Shown here in pieces: positions 7,321 through 58,848 of a stretch of 64,000 bases of DNA; position 1 is the stretch's first letter; every line of letters starts with the position of its first letter. The translations under genes and the position numbers were made by a program. Origin of the DNA: a virus; the IMG/VR virus record IMGVR_UViG_3300028840_006907, positions 288,001-352,000 of that record; one strand, written 5' to 3'. The notes under the pieces are model-generated. The model was given only the letters and a program-made list of their open reading frames with translations, did not search any database and was not told the origin of the DNA.

Positions 7321-7610
7321 TTATGAATAGGTATGACATTATTTTGGGTAACAATAGTCGGTTAGCGATGATGGAAAAATGGTCCCCTAAAGATTATAGA
7401 CAGGAATATTTAGGGGAATTCGTAAAACCAACATGTTCAGTTTCTGATGGTCATAATAATTATTGCCCATCAAAACCAGAACATTTTTTTGAGTATCATG
7501 GTAAAGAAGTGGGTTTATGTAAAGACTGCTATTTACATTATTTAAATGGACATTTTGATAAAAGATTTCAGAAAAAGAATTATGGTTATACCATCTATCA
7601 AATCGATTAA
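7296..7610 (+). CDS. small Cys-rich hypothetical protein
   Basis: ORF overlapping the end of the fusion gene. 'CSVSDGHNNYCPSKPEH...CKDCYLH' may be a zinc-binding arrangement. Confidence 0.35.
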   Translation: MVNLFRSVVMNRYDIILGNNSRLAMMEKWSPKDYRQEYLGEFVKPTCSVSDGHNNYCPSKPEHFFEYHGKEVGLCKDCYLHYLNGHFDKRFQKKNYGYTIYQID

Positions 7611-25480: not shown

Positions 25481-25567
25481 GGGTGGCCAGCCCCGCGTAG
25501 GCGGGGAAAAGGGATACGATAAGAAAAAATCTGCTCTGTGGAACAGCCCCACGAAAGTGGGGAATAA
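25481..25567 (-). repeat. two CRISPR-repeat-like GC hairpin units (orphan mini-array or repeat-derived bidirectional terminator)
   Basis: Minus-strand reads 'TTATTCCCCACTTTCGTGGGGCTGTTCCA' and 'TTCCCCGCCTACGCGGGGCTGGCCACC', 57 nt apart. Both match the 51.4 kb array repeat ATATTCCCCGCGTATGCGGGGCTG. Lies between convergent genes. Confidence 0.5.
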
Positions 25568-50816: not shown

Positions 50817-51252
50817 AGGTAATATGAGCAATATGAAAATTGCAATAGCTTCTTATATGCGTTATACAGTTGTTTTAGCCAACTTGAAAGAGCATTTCAA
50901 AAGAGAACTCGATCTAGCTGGCCTATTTGATAAAGACTCCGATTATAATGGAATGATAGGTAACGCTGTTATGGACCTGTGTAAAGTCTTCTCTGATCAG
51001 GGCCATAGCGGGTTCTCCGCGAACTGGGTTCTGAAATTGTTCGATACTCTTGGTCACTATAAAACGTTGACTCCTATTACAGATAATCCGAAAGAGTGGA
51101 TGAAGGTTACAGATGGCCTCGGTAGAGATGAACCGGTCTGGCAGAGTAATCGAAATCCTTCCCTTTTTTCTAATAATGGTGGAAAGAGTTATTATGATGT
51201 AGACGATAAGAAGCGTAAGAAGATCCGCTCTAAAAAGTTTAAAAAGAAATAA
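50788..51252 (+). CDS. hypothetical protein with basic tail
   Basis: ORF. Probable start at the internal Met (MSNMKIAIAS, about 50824). Ends 'KRKKIRSKKFKKK'. Confidence 0.45.
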   Translation: MLEKYLLIDRGNMSNMKIAIASYMRYTVVLANLKEHFKRELDLAGLFDKDSDYNGMIGNAVMDLCKVFSDQGHSGFSANWVLKLFDTLGHYKTLTPITDNPKEWMKVTDGLGRDEPVWQSNRNPSLFSNNGGKSYYDVDDKKRKKIRSKKFKKK

Positions 51253-51414
51253 TTTTTCTGAATAAATCAGGTTTTTTTCTTATTCTTTCGATAATTTCTC
51301 TTCTCTTTTTTCTCATAATTTATTATAATTATATATAGTATCTATAGCTCTTTGAAATTGGTAGAAATTTACTGAATCCGTAAGCCCTTGATCTTATGAT
51401 ATTTATGTTTTAGT
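51253..51414 (+). promoter_or_regulatory. CRISPR leader (AT-rich) with candidate promoter
   Basis: 162-bp AT-rich non-coding stretch directly 5' of the first repeat. 'ttgatc'-17 nt-'tagtat' at 51389..51416. Confidence 0.4.
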
Positions 51415-52317
51415 ATATTCCCCGCGTATGCGGGGCTGGGCCGATAAATCTTAAAATGGGTAAGATAAAAACCTGAATATTCCCCGCCCATGCGGGGCTG
51501 ATGCGTAATATAAATAATTTTTGATCAATTATAGGACATATTCCCCGCCCCTGCGGGGATTCCCCGAAAATATTGATGTTTTTTTGTATATATCAAAAAT
51601 ATTCCCCGCCCCTGCGGGGTTGATGCGAATACCGAACAAGTGCAGGGCCTGCAGATTATATATTCCCCGCGTATGCGGGGCTGGCGCGTAGGAGGTAAAA
51701 ATGAAATCGAAACATATTCCCCGCGTATGCGGGGCTGGTTCTAGAATTGAATGAAGCGCTGAATTTTCCCCGCCCATGCGGGGCTGAACCGACCGGGAAA
51801 TCATATCTATCCATAAATCTTGCATATTCCCCGCGTATGCGGGGCTGAACCGATACTAGATTGGGACATGTGTTTACCCAGAACATATTCCCCGCCCATG
51901 CGGGGCTGAACCGATTTCAAAAAACACGACCAGATAAAGATGAATATTCCCCGCGTATGCGGGGCTGTGTCAGGGTGAGAGGCTCGTGACGAATAATTTT
52001 TCATATTCCCCGACTCTTCGGGGTTGCCCCTCAGGAAGCTATTGAATTGCAAAAAACTGTATTCCCCGTCTATGCGGGGCTGTCTCTCCACATGCAAATG
52101 TAAGTAGTAAATACTGAATATTCCCCGGCATTCCGGGGCTGATCCCGTCTGGTAAAAACATAAAATGGTTCATCATAAGTATTCCCCGCCCATGCGAGGT
52201 TGGGCCATCCAGTACTGCTACTGCTAGGACCGTATTCCCCGCCCATGCGGGGCTGATCCTACGACTGGGACAGAAGTATTCATTGGTTTCACCCCGGCCT
52301 TTCCGGGGTCTAAAATA
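51415..52317 (+). CRISPR. CRISPR array, 16 repeats, type I-E-like 29-nt repeat ATATTCCCCGCGTATGCGGGGCTGAACCG, no cas genes in the window
   Basis: Repeat starts at 51415, 51477, 51538, 51599, 51660, 51714, 51763, 51824, 51885, 51944, 52003, 52059, 52118, 52179, 52232 and 52289. Periodicity is mostly 61 bp (29+32). Repeats share TTCCCCGCG...GCGGGG and the AACCG tail with the E. coli I-E repeat. Distal repeats are progressively degenerate. Spacers are unique and AT-rich. Confidence 0.8.
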
Positions 52318-52355
52318 AGGATCTGAGATTTTTTTCTTAGATCCTTATATTTTTA
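52317..52355 (+). terminator. hairpin terminator at distal end of array
   Basis: Stem 'aaggatctgag'/'cttagatcctt' with a T-rich loop, followed by 'tatattttt'. Confidence 0.45.
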
Positions 52356-52409
52356 ATAATGTATTTATATTATTCCTTTAAATAATATCAAAATAAAAAA
52401 GGAAAAAGT

Positions 52410-53315
52410 ATGGCAATTGCGTTTATGAGAGGAAGCACCACTAATCAGAATGATTTGACCATAACGGTACGTGATACATCCAATAATTTGATCGACCCGT
52501 ATTCGTTGGAGTATGCTGTCTTCGATTACACTAGTGGCACTGAGGTCCTCATCGGATCCCCTGTTAATACTCCGCTCAAGTTGTCAACAGGAGAATATTG
52601 GGCGGAGGTTGTAATAGCAGCCGATGCCAATATAGGTCTCTGGCGCATCCGTTGGACAATTCAAGAAACAGCAGTCAGTCCTGTTTATCAATCGGTTCAG
52701 GAATTTCAAGTAGTAGGTTCCAGTGTTGTGACGAGTGTAACCGGAGATGCAAATTTTGATGCATTGGTCCATTCTTTACGAGTGATACTCCGAGACAACA
52801 ATCCGGACCGCAACTACAGATTTCGTCCCCCAGCTTCCGAGAAATTTATCCAAGGTCAGACCCAAGTCTTTGGATTCATTTGGGAAGATGAAGAGCTTGT
52901 AGAGTATATATACATGGCTATTGACGACTTCAATTCACGCCCCCCGACTACAGGTATAGATGTGGCCAATCTTTGGGGAACTGAGAGACGGTGGAGAACT
53001 ACAATTATTTTAAGAGCAGCAGCTTTTGCATGTTTCGCTATAACAATGAATTGGATCGCTGACGAATTTTCTTATTCAATTTCTGGAGTATCTCTTGACA
53101 TTGAGAAATCTTCGAAGTATCAATCTATGAAAGAGAATTATATCAATGAATATGACAAGCTTGTCGAGGCCAATAAGAGATCCATAAAAATTATAAAAGG
53201 TCTTAGGCAATATCGGTACGGGGTGGGCATCACGAGCGCCCTGGGACCCATGAACAGACCTGGAGTTCAAAGTAGAAGAAACCTTATAAGTCCAAGTTAT
53301 GGCCCTTATTTCTAA
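52410..53315 (+). CDS. hypothetical protein (compositionally GC-richer than neighbours)
   Basis: RBS 'aaaggaaa'. 301 aa. No Cas-like motif. Confidence 0.5.
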   Translation: MAIAFMRGSTTNQNDLTITVRDTSNNLIDPYSLEYAVFDYTSGTEVLIGSPVNTPLKLSTGEYWAEVVIAADANIGLWRIRWTIQETAVSPVYQSVQEFQVVGSSVVTSVTGDANFDALVHSLRVILRDNNPDRNYRFRPPASEKFIQGQTQVFGFIWEDEELVEYIYMAIDDFNSRPPTTGIDVANLWGTERRWRTTIILRAAAFACFAITMNWIADEFSYSISGVSLDIEKSSKYQSMKENYINEYDKLVEANKRSIKIIKGLRQYRYGVGITSALGPMNRPGVQSRRNLISPSYGPYF

Positions 53316-53408: not shown

Positions 53409-55916
53409 TTATATTTTATTATTTTTTCTAAGGAGAGCTATCTGACGTTTAATCCATCGAGGAGTTTCTTCAAGAGTTTCAGCCATTTGATTTCTTGTCA
53501 TCTTTCCACGATTATCTATTATGAATTGGAGCTTTTCTTCAGTCTTTCTATCTTTGGTACAACCAATAGGGTTTTTTGTAGATAATGTACCTTTTTTTTG
53601 TAAGAATTTTATTTGAGATTTAACCCATCGCTCTGTTTCATTGAGAGCTTTAGATAATTCTTTTTTAGTTTTATTTTTATAATTAGTGATTATATACTGC
53701 GTTTTTTCAGGGGTTCTTCTACATTTTGTTGAGAATTTAGAAATCTCTTTTAAATAGGTAAATTTCTCAGTGGGTTGTTTAATATTTATATCTTCAATAC
53801 ATTTTGAATTATATATTTCTTTTTCTCTTTTAGGATAAGGTTTAGTAACATAATTTTTTAATTTGTTAATTTTTTTCTTATCTCTTTTATTTTCACCTAT
53901 TAATAAGACATATTTATGTTTTCTTTCAGTAATAAATTTTTGAGCTTCAGATAATATATTTTTATTCCAATTATTCCATTGAACTTTAATTCCTTCTGGT
54001 ATGGTACTCATATTTTTAAAACCATTTTCTTTAAACCATTCCTTTTGAGAAATAATCCCTTGATTTTTACACCATTTTTTAAATGCTGATGTACGTTTTA
54101 GAGATTGAGCTGAAAAAGTCCTATTATTTTTAATGGAAGGATGTTTATATAAGTATGAACTTCCAAAGTTATTTCCTAGATAATCAAATCCACAAGCTTG
54201 GTAAATAGTCCCTATTTCAAGAGCTTTAGGATCAGCATAACCTATGAAAGCTCTTTTAGAAGTGTTATTAGCCATCCAATTACAAGCAAACCTTATAAGA
54301 CGGCTACCCAGGTTTTTCGGGGTCCATGAGGCAGTGGCACCTCTTTGAATTAAAGCTTCATATTTGGGAGTATCTTTACCTAGAATTTTGGAATATGCTG
54401 TGGGTTCATTTATAAATAATACTCCTGCGAGAATATTATTGTATCTGGCTGTGAAGCACCATTTTGGTATTACTCCAATTGTTCCTAACCATTCATATTT
54501 TTTTATAAATTGGACCATTTCATTATTAAATTTTTCTTCAGATAATGTAAAAGAAGTAGCTTTTAAAGAAGAGTGATTGAAATCGATATTTTTTTTATCT
54601 TCATCAATCCATTGAAGTTTCTTTTTATATTGGTGGCATATAAAAGTGGTCTTGTTTTTACTGTTAATTTTATTTTTTATTAAATCAATGATAATACCTT
54701 TTCGGATAGCTTCTTTTACATCATCAGACCAAAATCTAATCAAATTGGGTATATTTTTATTTTGGATTTCATCATTCTTAATATTTTCTTTTATTTTTAA
54801 TGCCCTTGGAGACGTATCATTTTCTCTTATTTCTTTACCATGCCAATAATTACCATCATATTGTACCCATAAGTTATAGCGAGGCATATAGAAATCAATT
54901 ACATGTTTAATAATTGGGTGCATAACTTGATGTTCTACAAAAGGATCAAATACAATAAGATAATTAAAAAAGTTATTTTCTTCATCTGAGGATGAGAAGG
55001 AATTATTTAGTTTAACTGTTTTATATGTTTTTTCTTTTATTTCAACATTCTGTTGGGGATTTTCAACGCCATATCTTTCAATATTAGTTTCAGTGATTTT
55101 TTTCTTAATCTCTGGAGATTGGAATACATTGTCAACCCCGTATCTTGATTGTACTGTTACTTTAACTTTTCTTTTTACTTCTTTAGATTGAGAGGGGTAT
55201 TCTACTCCTCGTTTTTCAATATTAGATTGACGGGATTTTTCTTTCATTGAGTTTAGTTGAGTAGAATATTCTACGCCATAACGTTTTTTAATAGTTTCGT
55301 TATTATGTTTAACTATATCTTCATTTATTTTATCTCGATTCCTTCTTAATCCTAGTTTAATAGCTCTTTCTCGGATGGCTTTCCAGGTCCTGTTTTCAAA
55401 GTAGAGCATAATAAATTCCATAGAATTCTTTTCATATACTTCTTTTAAAAGATCATCTTCTTTGGGTGACCAGAAGTCTTCCCTAGCAGGAGCGCTTTTA
55501 CCACCATCAATCATTTCTTGTTTAATTATTTCAGGATTTCTTTGAAGGTTTAATTTTTGAGCATTACTTCGGATGCTTTGCCATGATCGATTCTTGAATT
55601 TAGAAAGGATAAATTCTTTTGAATTATTTTCATATATATTTTTAAGAATATTTATCTCTTCGGTTGTCCAGGAATCTTTTCTTGGTCCTCTTTTTTTACG
55701 GTCTTCATTTATAAGGTCAGGATTACGGTGAAGATTTAGCTTACGTGCTTTTCTACAGATGGTTGTCCAAGATTTATTTAATTTGGAGATAATAAATTCT
55801 TTTGAATTATTTTTATATATTTCTTTTAATAAATTTTCTTCTTCTATTTTCCAACGCATATGAGTACCTCTTTTTAGTATATTACTTATTATAACAGGTA
55901 TTAGAGTTATTGTCAA
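53409..55916 (-). CDS. multidomain HTH-repeat protein with Vsr/PD-(D/E)xK-like endonuclease motif
   Basis: Likely start at Met 55859 (MRWKIEEE). Three about 45-aa 'W[ST]xEExxxLKxxYxxNSxEFI...RxWxxIRxxAxKLxLxRN' repeats. Four 'RYGVE(N/Y)PxQ' repeats. 'YDGNYWHGK' Vsr-like motif. C-terminal about 400 aa uncharacterised, with two more HTH-like repeats. Confidence 0.6.
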   Translation of the reverse strand: MTITLIPVIISNILKRGTHMRWKIEEENLLKEIYKNNSKEFIISKLNKSWTTICRKARKLNLHRNPDLINEDRKKRGPRKDSWTTEEINILKNIYENNSKEFILSKFKNRSWQSIRSNAQKLNLQRNPEIIKQEMIDGGKSAPAREDFWSPKEDDLLKEVYEKNSMEFIMLYFENRTWKAIRERAIKLGLRRNRDKINEDIVKHNNETIKKRYGVEYSTQLNSMKEKSRQSNIEKRGVEYPSQSKEVKRKVKVTVQSRYGVDNVFQSPEIKKKITETNIERYGVENPQQNVEIKEKTYKTVKLNNSFSSSDEENNFFNYLIVFDPFVEHQVMHPIIKHVIDFYMPRYNLWVQYDGNYWHGKEIRENDTSPRALKIKENIKNDEIQNKNIPNLIRFWSDDVKEAIRKGIIIDLIKNKINSKNKTTFICHQYKKKLQWIDEDKKNIDFNHSSLKATSFTLSEEKFNNEMVQFIKKYEWLGTIGVIPKWCFTARYNNILAGVLFINEPTAYSKILGKDTPKYEALIQRGATASWTPKNLGSRLIRFACNWMANNTSKRAFIGYADPKALEIGTIYQACGFDYLGNNFGSSYLYKHPSIKNNRTFSAQSLKRTSAFKKWCKNQGIISQKEWFKENGFKNMSTIPEGIKVQWNNWNKNILSEAQKFITERKHKYVLLIGENKRDKKKINKLKNYVTKPYPKREKEIYNSKCIEDINIKQPTEKFTYLKEISKFSTKCRRTPEKTQYIITNYKNKTKKELSKALNETERWVKSQIKFLQKKGTLSTKNPIGCTKDRKTEEKLQFIIDNRGKMTRNQMAETLEETPRWIKRQIALLRKNNKI

Positions 55917-55962: not shown

Positions 55963-56316
55963 ATGGAAATTGAAATTTATGGAAAAGAATTTGTTTCTTG
56001 TAATATTTTAAGGGCTGAAGTAGGTACAAATTGCCCACAGGGGGGAGATACAGGACATGGTGGTCGAACTATTTTAAGATTGATTGATGAAGCAGCTACT
56101 GATATAAGTATAAAAGTAGATGGTCAGCCTTTAGGTAGTATAAAAACTTTGGAAATATTATTAGGTGGCGATACTGAGTGCGACACTTTTATGAATGCTC
56201 TTAATTTTGCCTTGAATGTATTAAAAGATCATAATCCAAATTATGAAATGGATCCACATATAAGAGGTTCTGGGAAGGGATTGATACAAAAAGATTATAA
56301 AATAGAAACATTATGA
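55963..56316 (+). CDS. hypothetical protein (operon partner of small ATPase)
   Basis: RBS 'aaaaagatgg'. Stop overlaps the next start (ATGA). Confidence 0.4.
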   Translation: MEIEIYGKEFVSCNILRAEVGTNCPQGGDTGHGGRTILRLIDEAATDISIKVDGQPLGSIKTLEILLGGDTECDTFMNALNFALNVLKDHNPNYEMDPHIRGSGKGLIQKDYKIETL

Positions 56317-56861
56317 TTACAAAGATAGAATTATTAGAAAAATACAGAACTTTAAAACCGTTTGTTATGGAGCCTAATCTAGGAGTCAATCTTATTGTTG
56401 GTGAGAATGGTTCGGGTAAATCCTCATTGTTAAATATTATAAAGGAAAATGCTCCTGAGGTAAGATTAGAAATTGAAGGTACTATAAATTATTACCATTT
56501 TGATACGGAAAAGGACAATCCTCGAACTCAAGGCACTCTTCCATTTAATGCTCCTGGTGATGTTTATGCCTATCATCTGACGTCACATTTCCAGAGTCAT
56601 GGTGAAGTACTATTTCCTATTTTAAATCTTATGAGAACTTTTGAGAACAGGATTTTATTCTATGATGAACCGGAGAGTGGGGTCTCGATTAATAATCAGT
56701 TAAAGGCATGTACTGCGATAAGAAAAGCGGTAAGGAATGGTTGTCAACTTTTTATTGCGACTCATTCTTATATATTTATAAAAAAATTTAAAAAAGTCTT
56801 TGATTTAAAGACATATCAATTTGTAAAATCAGAGGATTGGTTATCTCAATTTAGGATATAA
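56313..56861 (+). CDS. small P-loop NTPase (AAA/ABC-like)
   Basis: Walker A 'GENGSGKSSLLNII'. Walker B-like 'ILFYDEPESGVS'. Confidence 0.6.
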   Translation: MITKIELLEKYRTLKPFVMEPNLGVNLIVGENGSGKSSLLNIIKENAPEVRLEIEGTINYYHFDTEKDNPRTQGTLPFNAPGDVYAYHLTSHFQSHGEVLFPILNLMRTFENRILFYDEPESGVSINNQLKACTAIRKAVRNGCQLFIATHSYIFIKKFKKVFDLKTYQFVKSEDWLSQFRI

Positions 56862-57930: not shown

Positions 57931-58848
57931 ATGAAAAAAGTATTTATTATAATAGTATTGTTTTGTGCTTATGGATTTTCAGAAATATCTGTGTCAGATA
58001 TTGTTAAATCATTTGTGGATAATCCAAAGACTTTCAGATCTAGATTGTTGAAATATGAAGTTATTCCAGACCATGTTGATTTACCAATAGAATTTGTCGA
58101 TGATGAAGATGAAAGTTTATGGAAAACTAAGAAAAAGGTTAATTATATAATAGATTATTCAAAGATGTCGAAATGTGCTGATAAATTTAGAGATCTTTTT
58201 GCATATGAAGGATTGACTGAATATCAGTATATGGATCAGTCAAACCTTTTGGTATTTAATCATCCTAATGGTGGCCGTGAAGTATCCGCACAGATTGTCA
58301 GGGATTTGATTAATACTAGAACAGAGGCAGAATTAAAAAATATAGGATTGACTTTAGGTGAAAAGCTCTTTGCCATTTTTAAGAATAAAATAGAATTTCA
58401 ATGTACGGAAATAGAGTATACAAGGGGTCATACGAATTTAAACCAAATAAGTAAATACTCTATTCGATATAGGCGTATTTTTAATGATGGTATTGTCTTA
58501 CAGAATATTTCCTATATAATGTTAACTCTGGAAGGACTTGGTGATTTGATTGAAGTCGAGATTAAATGGCCTAAATTTAAAAAATGTGAAAATATAAAGA
58601 ATGGCATTTTAATTAAGGACGCTTTAATATTAGCTAAACAAGAGTATAATGAAATCGCTTCTCGAAAAGTTGATGAATTCTTAAATATTGAAGCTATCGA
58701 TAGACTTTCTATAACTGGATCTTGTTTTGGATGGACTCATGAGATCATTGATGGTGTTAATTTATTAAAACCTAGTTATGGGTTTGTGGGAATAGCTGAA
58801 ACAAAGAATGGTAAAAAAGAACATCATTATATAAATATCGATAAATGA
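57931..58848 (+). CDS. secreted hypothetical protein
   Basis: Signal peptide 'MKKVFIIIVLFCAYGFS'. RBS 'aagggag'. Confidence 0.5.
   Translation: MKKVFIIIVLFCAYGFSEISVSDIVKSFVDNPKTFRSRLLKYEVIPDHVDLPIEFVDDEDESLWKTKKKVNYIIDYSKMSKCADKFRDLFAYEGLTEYQYMDQSNLLVFNHPNGGREVSAQIVRDLINTRTEAELKNIGLTLGEKLFAIFKNKIEFQCTEIEYTRGHTNLNQISKYSIRYRRIFNDGIVLQNISYIMLTLEGLGDLIEVEIKWPKFKKCENIKNGILIKDALILAKQEYNEIASRKVDEFLNIEAIDRLSITGSCFGWTHEIIDGVNLLKPSYGFVGIAETKNGKKEHHYINIDK

Follow-up and report, generated by a model that had tools for sequence, protein, structure and literature searches.

The 64,000-nucleotide stretch of viral DNA analyzed here (positions 288,001 to 352,000 of IMG/VR record IMGVR_UViG_3300028840_006907, hereafter the window) carries a CRISPR array of type I-E descent, with 15 spacers. 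We consider it probable that this array is a fixed, Cascade-competent guide set on a huge phage, and that it would hijack type I-E Cas proteins supplied in trans. Cas-less arrays of huge phages and small anti-CRISPR RNA arrays are already known, but we found no description, in the literature examined, of a 15-guide array in which all of the repeats are different and yet the Cas6e hairpin and the Cas5e contacts are kept.

Architecture of the array

The array comprises 16 hairpin-bearing units at 51415-52316 on the + strand, 15 of which have the core TTCCCCG-N6-CGGGG. A preliminary description of this DNA had counted sixteen 29-nt repeats, of which 15 are good and the last is degenerate, with a loop of 5 nt. 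In the type I-E register, the unit is 29 nt long and consists of 5 nt (ATATT), a 6-bp stem (CCCCGC/GCGGGG) enclosing a 4-nt loop, and a further 8 nt. The start-to-start spacings of successive units are 62, 61, 61, 61, 54, 49, 61, 61, 59, 59, 56, 59, 61, 53, and 55 nt, so that the period is 61-62 nt in 7 of 15 cases and the "mostly exact" 61-bp periodicity first reported was a little generous. The shortened spacers that had been noticed are all present; seven spacers are 32-33 nt long and the other eight 20-30 nt, five of them at 20-27 nt and three at 30 nt (Table 1). Near-identical spacers would have meant a tandem repeat of a non-CRISPR kind, but the spacers are mutually unrelated, their best pairwise score being no higher than that of shuffled sequences (P = 0.46), and Tandem Repeats Finder reported no tandem repeat over the array. 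The GC content of the array is 49%, compared to 33% for the genome. Hairpins of the form CCCC-NN-loop-NN-GGGG occur in the window only in the array and in a two-unit locus on the opposite strand (25483-25567), a restriction far beyond chance.

Table 1 Features of the array, its leader and terminator, the second locus, and the flanking genes (window coordinates)
Feature	Position	Strand	Description
AT-rich leader	51253-51414	+	162 bp, 23.5% GC
GGTAG type I-E leader motif	51360-51364	+	Cas1-Cas2 integrase-anchoring region; -55 from repeat 1; only GGTAG in the leader
Repeat 1	51415-51443	+	ATATTCCCCGCGTATGCGGGGCTGGGCCG; spacer 1, 33 nt
Repeat 2	51477-51505	+	Handle CTGATGCG; spacer 2, 32 nt
Repeat 3	51538-51566	+	Handle ATTCCCCG; spacer 3, 32 nt
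Repeat 4	51599-51627	+	Handle TTGATGCG; spacer 4, 32 nt
Repeat 5	51660-51688	+	Handle CTGGCGCG; spacer 5, 25 nt, includes AGGAGGTAAAAATG
Repeat 6	51714-51742	+	Handle CTGGTTCT; spacer 6, 20 nt
Repeat 7	51763-51791	+	Canonical handle CTGAACCG; spacer 7, 32 nt
Repeat 8	51824-51852	+	Canonical handle CTGAACCG; spacer 8, 32 nt
Repeat 9	51885-51913	+	Canonical handle CTGAACCG; spacer 9, 30 nt
Repeat 10	51944-51972	+	Handle CTGTGTCA; spacer 10, 30 nt
Repeat 11	52003-52031	+	Stem CCCCGA/TCGGGG (compensatory A-U pair); handle TTGCCCCT; spacer 11, 27 nt
Repeat 12	52059-52087	+	U.G wobble in stem; handle CTGTCTCT; spacer 12, 30 nt
Repeat 13	52118-52146	+	Stem CCCCGG/CCGGGG (compensatory G-C pair); handle CTGATCCC; spacer 13, 32 nt
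Repeat 14	52179-52207	+	Sole stem mismatch (C.A); handle TTGGGCCA; spacer 14, 24 nt
Repeat 15	52232-52260	+	Handle CTGATCCT; spacer 15, 26 nt
Terminal repeat 16	52287-52316	+	Hairpin kept (CCCCGG-CCTTT-CCGGGG), handle lost (TCTAAAAT)
Intrinsic-terminator-like hairpin and T-run	52315-52348	+	14 bp; feature as annotated extends to 52358; would close the array transcript
Second locus, unit S1	25539-25567	-	TTATTCCCCACTTTCGTGGGGCTGTTCCA; compensatory A-U pair; T-7, G-6, C-2 kept; followed by a 27-nt spacer
Second locus, terminal unit S2	25483-25511	-	CTTTTCCCCGCCTACGCGGGGCTGGCCAC; hairpin kept, C-2 lost
Tad3 homologue (anti-Thoeris)	50824-51252	+	Directly upstream of the leader; Pfam PF25185, E 5e-33, 113.8 bits (cutoff 27); 142 aa in the JGI annotation
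Head-tail-connector-like virion gene	52410-53315	+	301 aa; just downstream, at the edge of the variable slot; conserved

Descent from type I-E and the leader

Repeats 7-9 follow the pattern AT[AT]TTCCCCGC[GTAT/CCAT]GCGGGGCTGAACCG and lie only 2-4 mismatches away from real type I-E repeats, for example GTGTTCCCCGCGCATGCGGGGCTGAACCG. A genome scan with the core pattern returned at least 120 loci, many of which are regular 61-nt type I-E arrays. The E. coli K-12 repeat (GAGTTCCCCGCGCCAGCGGGGATAAACCG), taken from NC_000913.3, matches at 21 of 29 positions, the figure that had been given from the start.

The AT-rich leader on the 5′ side and the hairpin terminator at the distal end, both proposed earlier, were found as described (Table 1). 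The leader ends in AGT (51412-51414) and its GGTAG motif lies where real leaders have theirs, since GGT[AG][GC] occurs at -57 to -53 in 28 of 33 real type I-E leaders, most of which end in AGT or AGA; the E. coli K-12 leader has GGTGG at -54 and ends in AGA. Such a GGT motif and an AG[TA] junction occur together at a fraction of 4.3e-4 of window positions. This is consistent with past work describing the region from -44 to -59 of type I-E leaders as conserved, with the Cas1-Cas2 integrase anchoring site (IAS) at -50 to -53 (PMC5224486). The orientation first assigned, with the leader upstream, is upheld. Given the 29 + 32 nt period, the 2-4 mismatches of repeats 7-9, the unique spacers, and the leader motif with its AGT end, we judge from the sequence that the array is genuinely derived from type I-E, in the type I-E orientation, with a real type I-E-type leader.

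A site for integration host factor was not seen in the usual place and orientation in the phage leader, and a promoter-like motif that also occurs at the downstream gene was not enriched. A 20-nt near-repeat shared by the 3′ end of the Tad3 gene and the leader occurs in those two places only and is not recurrent, 2 of 100 shuffles reaching as many copies.

Relatives of the array were also sought in public collections. Megablast of the locus against GenBank phages gave no match, distant blastn searches with the array gave chance matches only (E ≥ 1), and the phage-specific repeat had 0 matches in IMG/VR. A scan of IMG/VR for type I-E-type cores returned 42 loci, all of them solitary or with at most four repeats.

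Selective conservation of the hairpin and handle

Across the array and the second locus, 99% of 102 stem cells are paired. Repeats 11 and 13 and unit S1 each have a compensatory double change in the stem (to A-U, G-C, and A-U, respectively), and there are also one U.G wobble and one mismatch. The covariation score of the stem was reached by none of 500 shuffles, and registers slid away from the true one pair in only 37-65% of cases. The hairpin is under selection at the RNA level.

Cleavage by Cas6e yields an RNA made up of an 8-nt 5′ handle, the spacer, and a 21-nt hairpin with Cas6e bound; the handle is then capped by Cas5e and the spacer is coated with Cas7 (PMC5965380). In the E. coli Cascade, Cas5e makes base-specific contacts with U-7 (Y145) and C-2 (R108), while A-5, A-4, and C-3 are stacked, with no base-specific contact described, and the base at -1 is kinked out (PMC5965380). 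The 15 handles of the array that precede a spacer, here called used handles, have T at -7 (15/15), G at -6 (14/15), and C at -2 (15/15), with positions -5, -4, -3, and -1 scrambled; the positions flanking -7 and -2 are altered in 40-55% of repeats. Handles that would never be used have lost these bases, since repeat 16 ends in TCTAAAAT and unit S2 has A at -2; viral mini-arrays in IMG/VR have likewise lost them in their terminal repeats. Because the conserved bases are those that Cas6e and Cas5e need, and because they are lost in unused handles, this pattern suggests that the units undergo processing and enter Cascade, and speaks against handle-less decoys and neutral debris alike. The heterogeneity of the repeats is selective rather than the result of decay, with change confined to positions that the Cas proteins do not read.

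Some of the same observations could be accommodated by an RNA sponge similar to the RNA anti-CRISPRs (Racrs), in which 16 repeat mimics bind Cas6e and Cas7 and block the host Cascade, the handles and spacers being irrelevant. The hairpin is the best-conserved part of the unit and covaries, ten of the 15 handles depart from the canonical form, eight of the 15 spacers have an odd length, and an anti-defence gene, encoding Tad3, adjoins the array. Racrs often lie beside anti-CRISPR genes, need their stem-loop, and tolerate changes in the handle; RacrIE1 and RacrIE2 inhibit a type I-E system; and the pipeline used to find Racrs threw out arrays, so that an arrayed form could have been missed (PMC10651486). 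A sponge does not, however, predict invariant -7 and -2 positions in 15 of 15 used handles with loss only in the unused terminal ones, and it needs neither unique 32-nt spacers nor a type I-E leader motif. Racrs are, moreover, solitary by definition, with no other repeat within 100 bp (PMC10651486). We regard a sponge as unlikely, and the handle-less, Racr-like decoy array that had been considered as a candidate was demoted on finding that the invariant handle positions are the Cas5e contacts U-7 and C-2; it now looks unlikely.

The phage carrier and the source of Cas proteins

The window matches JGI contig 3300017963 Ga0180437_10000019 (388,651 bp, where it corresponds to 88443-152442, reversed) save for one base, at window position 58533, which is the sole difference from the JGI and Logan contigs over an overlap of ~21 kb. 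The source of the window is therefore a third assembly, nearly identical to these two. A 469,617-bp contig encodes the same flanking proteins. The 301-aa protein encoded just downstream of the array is 29% identical, across 89% of its length, to a protein annotated as the head-tail connector in the Tunturiibacter jumbo phage Tunturi_5, and it also matches gp165 of Bacillus phage G. Since over 100 IMG/VR contigs, with lengths of up to 450 kb, have a conserved copy of its gene and its product resembles a jumbo-phage head-tail connector, the carrier of the array is, on the strength of these homologies, a huge phage, which bears out the phage origin first suggested.

The absence of cas genes had been reported for about 10 kb on either side, and it extends further than this. 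In the window, 78 open reading frames (ORFs) matched 77 PADLOC families, the 25 strongest of which include no Cas family, and none was present in precomputed Pfam hits for the genes 8-10 kb past each window end, which together cover ~82 kb. The conserved Cas6e hairpin and Cas5e contact bases fit the suggestion that the array would depend on a type I-E Cascade supplied in trans.

The Cascade or Cas6e genes might instead lie elsewhere on the 388-470 kb phage genome, making the system the phage's own and not the host's. Many huge phages do have effector genes of their own, frequently with none for acquisition (PMC7162821), and the search for Cas families took in ~82 kb of a 388,651-bp contig, with a 469,617-bp contig carrying the same protein. 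The lack of any Cas family in the ~82 kb around the array speaks against this arrangement, as does the synteny of relatives without the array, which are otherwise alike at this locus. Phage cas genes usually adjoin their arrays. We consider a self-contained phage system improbable, as we do the sponge.

A probably fixed array

The repeats and spacers were compared with those of 40 real type I-E arrays (1,516 repeats) from the genome scan. Mismatches of each repeat to the consensus of its own array average 4.2 here, compared to a median of 0.19 in the real arrays, and 15 of 15 repeats are distinct, compared to a median of 11%. Spacers of 31-33 nt make up 7 of 15 here and 96.5% in the real arrays, so that 53% of the spacers are off-length compared to 3.5%.

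Spacer integration duplicates repeat 1. Repeat 1 of this array has no twin, and five positions differ between repeats 1 and 2. Loops of the two main types, GTAT and CCAT, alternate irregularly along the array, and the array is identical in the JGI and Logan assemblies. From the lack of a second copy of repeat 1, the mixing of loop types, and the agreement of the two data sets, we conclude that the array has not grown for a long time. The preliminary description had proposed a directionally growing array with progressive leader-distal decay; the growth finds no support, as no two of the 15 repeats are identical, and the decay is not seen, as the handles of repeats 1-6 vary equally strongly and the repeats closest to canonical, 7-9, are mid-array.

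An array adapting at present, with new spacers inserted next to the leader by the Cas1-Cas2 of the host and with guides that destroy competing phages (superinfection exclusion, the function first suggested), would account for the leader with its integrase-anchoring motif and junction, for seven spacers of canonical length, and for the uniqueness of all spacers, and huge-phage arrays directed against other phages have been documented (PMC7162821). This is difficult to reconcile with the absence of any repeat equal to repeat 1, the interleaved loops, the mid-array position of the most canonical repeats, and the identity of the array in two data sets, a related array described below likewise being identical in two samples. 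Nor was a protospacer found in 80 related loci, in INPHARED, or, for four spacers, in IMG/VR. An adapting array is thus improbable, and slightly more so than either of the possibilities considered above.

Accessory cargo in related phages

No such array was found in 80 IMG/VR relatives. In relatives 81-86% identical in the 301-aa protein, the Tad3 gene either abuts the connector-like gene or is separated from it by other cargo, and the relatives without the array are otherwise syntenic here. An array does occupy the same slot, followed by a homologous terminator, in L253/L261 (88% identical in the 301-aa protein), the closest lineage with upstream sequence available. Its stems are CCCCTGT/ACAGGGG, with U.G wobbles that pair on the + strand only, and its periods are 51-54 nt. 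The handles, TTGTCTCT, CTGGGGCT, TTGGTTCT, and TTGTTCCA, keep T-7, G-6, and C-2 (three used handles are visible in L253). This L253-type array is identical in two samples (JGI 3300008516 and 3300005782), and both contigs break within it. In L256 (77%), positions 7359-7546 read TTTTCACCGGGGTCTTAAGGGTCTGAGA..., a scar of terminal repeat 16 minus its hairpin followed by the shared terminator, which suggests that this lineage lost its array by deletion. The terminator itself is conserved with compensatory changes in L253 and L256. From these relatives, most without the array, one lineage with a diverged array, and one with a scar, it follows that the slot is variable and that the array, as accessory cargo, predates a single phage lineage and is kept for the structure of its RNA.

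The stem of the L253-type array, searched for in IMG/VR, matched unrelated solitary hairpins only, and a metagenome scan likewise returned one unrelated solitary hairpin, L203. The latter (WLWG01001050.1, 8757-8780, - strand) carries the unit ATATTCCCCGCAGTTGCGGGGCTG flanked by an inverted repeat (GTGAT...ATCAC), lies between genes on an unrelated contig of 31% GC with 3-4 direct repeats of 53-54 nt just upstream and a gene ~30 nt downstream, and looks like a solitary repeat unit.

A relic, that is, an array captured from a host and now eroding neutrally without function, would show heterogeneous repeats, shortened spacers, no targets in the searches made, and absence from most relatives, all of which are seen. 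Its erosion, however, would have to be strongly non-uniform, leaving stems 99% paired and T-7 and C-2 present in 15 of 15 while altering the flanks in 40-55%. A diverged array with other stems and the same layout in a related phage, identical in two samples, and a GC content well above that of the genome argue against it further, and we give it very little credence. Least credible of all are Cas-independent hairpins (regulatory, terminator, or RNA-stability elements) merely resembling CRISPR repeats, because although the second locus is flanked by convergent genes, a setting in which one expects terminators, and similar GC-rich solitary hairpins occur in other viral contigs, such elements would not be expected to show a 29 + 32 nt period, closeness to type I-E repeats, a leader motif, or the Cas5e-contact pattern, and no T-run follows the hairpins on the + strand.

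Targets and points that weigh against a guide array

Protospacers at up to 20% mismatch were absent from the window and 80 related huge-phage loci, and none were found in 50,697 GenBank phages (INPHARED). Spacers 4, 7, 8, and 10 had no match in IMG/VR, and blastn-short of all spacers against 1.9 Mb of loci, including 120 type I-E loci, gave chance-level matches only.

Several observations weigh against a Cascade-competent guide set. No spacer had a target in the databases searched, so that the guide function is putative. The nearest real repeats, among the matches listed, are scattered over taxa and identify no host, and Rfam at E ≤ 10 reports no CRISPR-repeat family, only noise. The usual YTGANCC pattern is present in only 5 of 15 handles; the other ten would presumably still load into Cascade, a view resting on contacts in the E. 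coli structure, from which the host system may differ. The prefix TATT (repeat positions 2-5) is conserved, and the cited contacts offer no explanation for it. The leader has a weak sigma-70-like site at 51310-51339, but such sites are not enriched over shuffles and do not establish a promoter. The term Cas-less holds only locally, for ~82 kb around the array of the 388,651-bp contig. Finally, spacers of 30, 27, 25, and 24 nt do not fall in clean 6-nt steps below 32.

Proposed mechanism and purpose

For a phage guide set that borrows its Cas proteins, we infer RNA processing and loading, a source of Cas proteins, and targets as follows. Transcription of the array would run from left to right, starting in the leader or continuing from the Tad3 gene by read-through, and would stop at the hairpin terminator. 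Cas6e would cleave each unit past the hairpin, between G21 and position 22, and remain on the hairpin; Cas5e would cap the 8-nt 5′ handle and Cas7 would coat the spacer, so that Cascade assembles on a guide chosen by the phage. The array would provide 15 such guides and the second locus one more. As the source of Cas proteins in trans, a type I-E host is the most likely, and cas genes at another place in the phage genome are less so. Because the array stopped growing, integration would no longer re-homogenize the repeats, which could therefore diverge at positions that the Cas proteins do not read, and this divergence would also guard the array against deletion by recombination between repeats.

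The seven units with guides of 32-33 nt could direct interference by Cas3, most plausibly against competing mobile elements. The eight units with guides of 20-30 nt would resemble the shortened guides of CreA, CreR, and Cracr, with which Cascade binds and represses without cutting. Given a guide set of this kind, targeting of competitors is a purpose toward which we lean with some reserve, repression of host or defence genes is a slightly weaker candidate, and a combination of the two is possible and has the smallest share. Attack on competitors and Cracr-like repression of host cas or toxin genes are not exclusive and seem about equally likely, the host-directed role gaining from the adjoining Tad3 gene and the short, 20-27 nt spacers. 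A more specific version, in which a cassette of 15 guides, long retained with no homogenization of its repeats, has become a "de-repeated" array, acts as a recombination-resistant hijacker of host Cascade, combines full-length cutting guides with short guides that only bind and so repress host defence genes, and amounts to a large anti-defence array of the Cracr type, is offered only tentatively.

If the proposal is true, phages can keep large fixed sets of guides for hijacking host Cascade without acquisition machinery, and the array is a natural mutational scan of the minimal type I-E repeat that could be of use when multiplex arrays are to be made non-repetitive and stable against recombination. 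Such elements would then probably be under-counted by array finders that depend on near-identical repeats and by Racr pipelines in which arrays are thrown out. With Tad3 adjacent, the array is a candidate RNA component of an anti-defence island in the phage.

Comparison with known systems

Compact arrays that lack cas genes are known from huge phages, which may draw on the Cas proteins of their hosts (PMC7162821). The array described here resembles these (Al-Shayeb et al. 2020, PMC7162821) in lying on a huge-phage genome with no acquisition or interference genes nearby, in its host-type repeats, and in the proposed use of host Cas proteins. It differs from them in having 16 repeats, compared to a median of six, in the selective retention of handle bases, in sub-canonical lengths for half of its spacers, and in the lack of a target found. 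The huge-phage arrays were detected with a standard repeat finder, which presumes near-identical repeats (PMC7162821), whereas every repeat differs here.

Phage type I-E Cracr arrays have spacers of 21-24 nt and a typical 8-nt handle (bioRxiv 10.1101/2024.10.29.618823). Like these arrays (Liu et al., including a type I-E array of a Salmonella prophage), the present one is borne by a mobile element, Cas-less, and composed of degenerate repeat-like units with short spacers, keeps the 8-nt handle, is multiplexed in what would be one transcript, and lies with other anti-defence genes. Cracr arrays have only 2-3 spacers (bioRxiv 10.1101/2024.10.29.618823), compared to 15 here, seven of them full length, and they are defined by spacer matches to host CreR/CreA and cas promoters (partial complementarity over at least 9 PAM-proximal bp, with toxin promoters also counting), whereas the present array is likened to them by its layout. 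Racrs (Camara-Wilpert et al. 2023, PMC10651486) are likewise phage-borne repeat mimics with a conserved Cas6 stem-loop, found beside anti-defence genes, and would likewise compete for Cas proteins. A Racr, however, is solitary and forms a complex without Cas5 and Cas8 for want of a usable 5′ handle, whereas these units are arrayed 49-62 nt apart and, as far as their sequences indicate, keep the bases contacted by Cas5e.

With a canonical type I-E array (E. coli K-12 CRISPR-1 and the 40 real arrays), the phage array shares the 29-nt repeat, the GC stem and tetraloop, handle positions U-7 and C-2, a 61-nt period in seven units, unique spacers, a GGTNG motif near -54, an AGT/AGA junction, and a degenerate terminal repeat. 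Unlike a canonical array, it has no adjacent cas operon, has heterogeneous repeats and 53% off-length spacers, and lies on a phage genome. Two-repeat, Cas-less, type I-E-like mini-arrays in IMG/VR look to be of the kind described as virus-borne mini-CRISPR arrays (Medvedeva et al. 2019, PMC6858448). In these, the first repeat keeps its handle and the terminal one keeps only its hairpin, and the second locus (25483-25567) has the same layout; the IMG/VR mini-arrays have at most four repeats, and the main array is far longer and heterogeneous.

The second locus, neighboring genes, and other observations

The second locus lies between convergent genes, with the handle of its first unit intact and that of its terminal unit degraded, as in two-repeat IMG/VR mini-arrays. 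It may also act as a bidirectional terminator.

Spacer 5 (AGGAGGTAAAAATGAAATCGAAAC, 51689-51713) contains a strong Shine-Dalgarno sequence and a start codon (AGGAGGTAAAAATG), and a 17-codon micro-ORF, MKSKHIPRVCGAGSRIE, opens there, crosses repeat 6, and runs to 51759. This start signal could be due to chance, a protospacer taken from the start of a gene, or a guide aimed at a translation-initiation region. The target predicted from spacer 5 would be the start of a gene whose product begins M-K-S-K. Hairpins inside spacers 1-4 are suggestive by eye, but not significant compared to shuffles. Minus-strand ORFs of 98 and 96 aa inside the array were considered as genes and rejected, as their translations are the repeats over and over; the 98-aa artefact is annotated as a gene by JGI (9120-9416 of contig L001, corresponding to window 51529-51825 on the - strand), and its translation includes PAPHTRGI, QPRMGGEN, and NPRRGGEY.

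The gap between the Tad3 and connector-like genes (window 50824-52410) is a cargo hot spot in relatives (L006, L248, L251, L253, L255, L256, and L258), where it contains nothing, a sulfotransferase gene, two genes for unknown proteins (102 and 318 aa), a gene for a 123-aa protein, or an array. In L256, a gene with a Fic domain lies a few genes upstream of Tad3. An intein (Pfam PF14890) interrupts the homologues of the 301-aa protein in L253 (440-1930), L254 (76-1458), and L006 (6001-8380), whose products are 460-519 aa long; the window copy is without an intein.

Past the connector-like gene, 53409-55916 (- strand) encodes an 835-aa protein with DUF7487, HNH/homing-endonuclease-like regions, and a Mom-like DNA-modification domain, and its gene adjoins the connector-like gene in the closest relatives too (L253, L254, and L006). 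A 182-aa ORF at 56313-56861 has only the N-terminal P-loop part of AAA_15/AAA_21 (AbiEii/GajA/PtuA-like) ATPases and, from this domain content, could represent a defence-type ATPase that is truncated or serves as a decoy. Window ~4300-37000 is taken up by a very large cluster for sugar modification. It encodes multi-domain glycosyltransferase/methyltransferase proteins (994 and 684 aa), UDP-glucose dehydrogenase, epimerases of the GDP-mannose dehydratase type, NeuB, a DegT aminotransferase, a nucleotidyl transferase, sulfotransferases, and many small methyltransferases, and one ORF in the same region matches radical-SAM/viperin-like (pVip) models.

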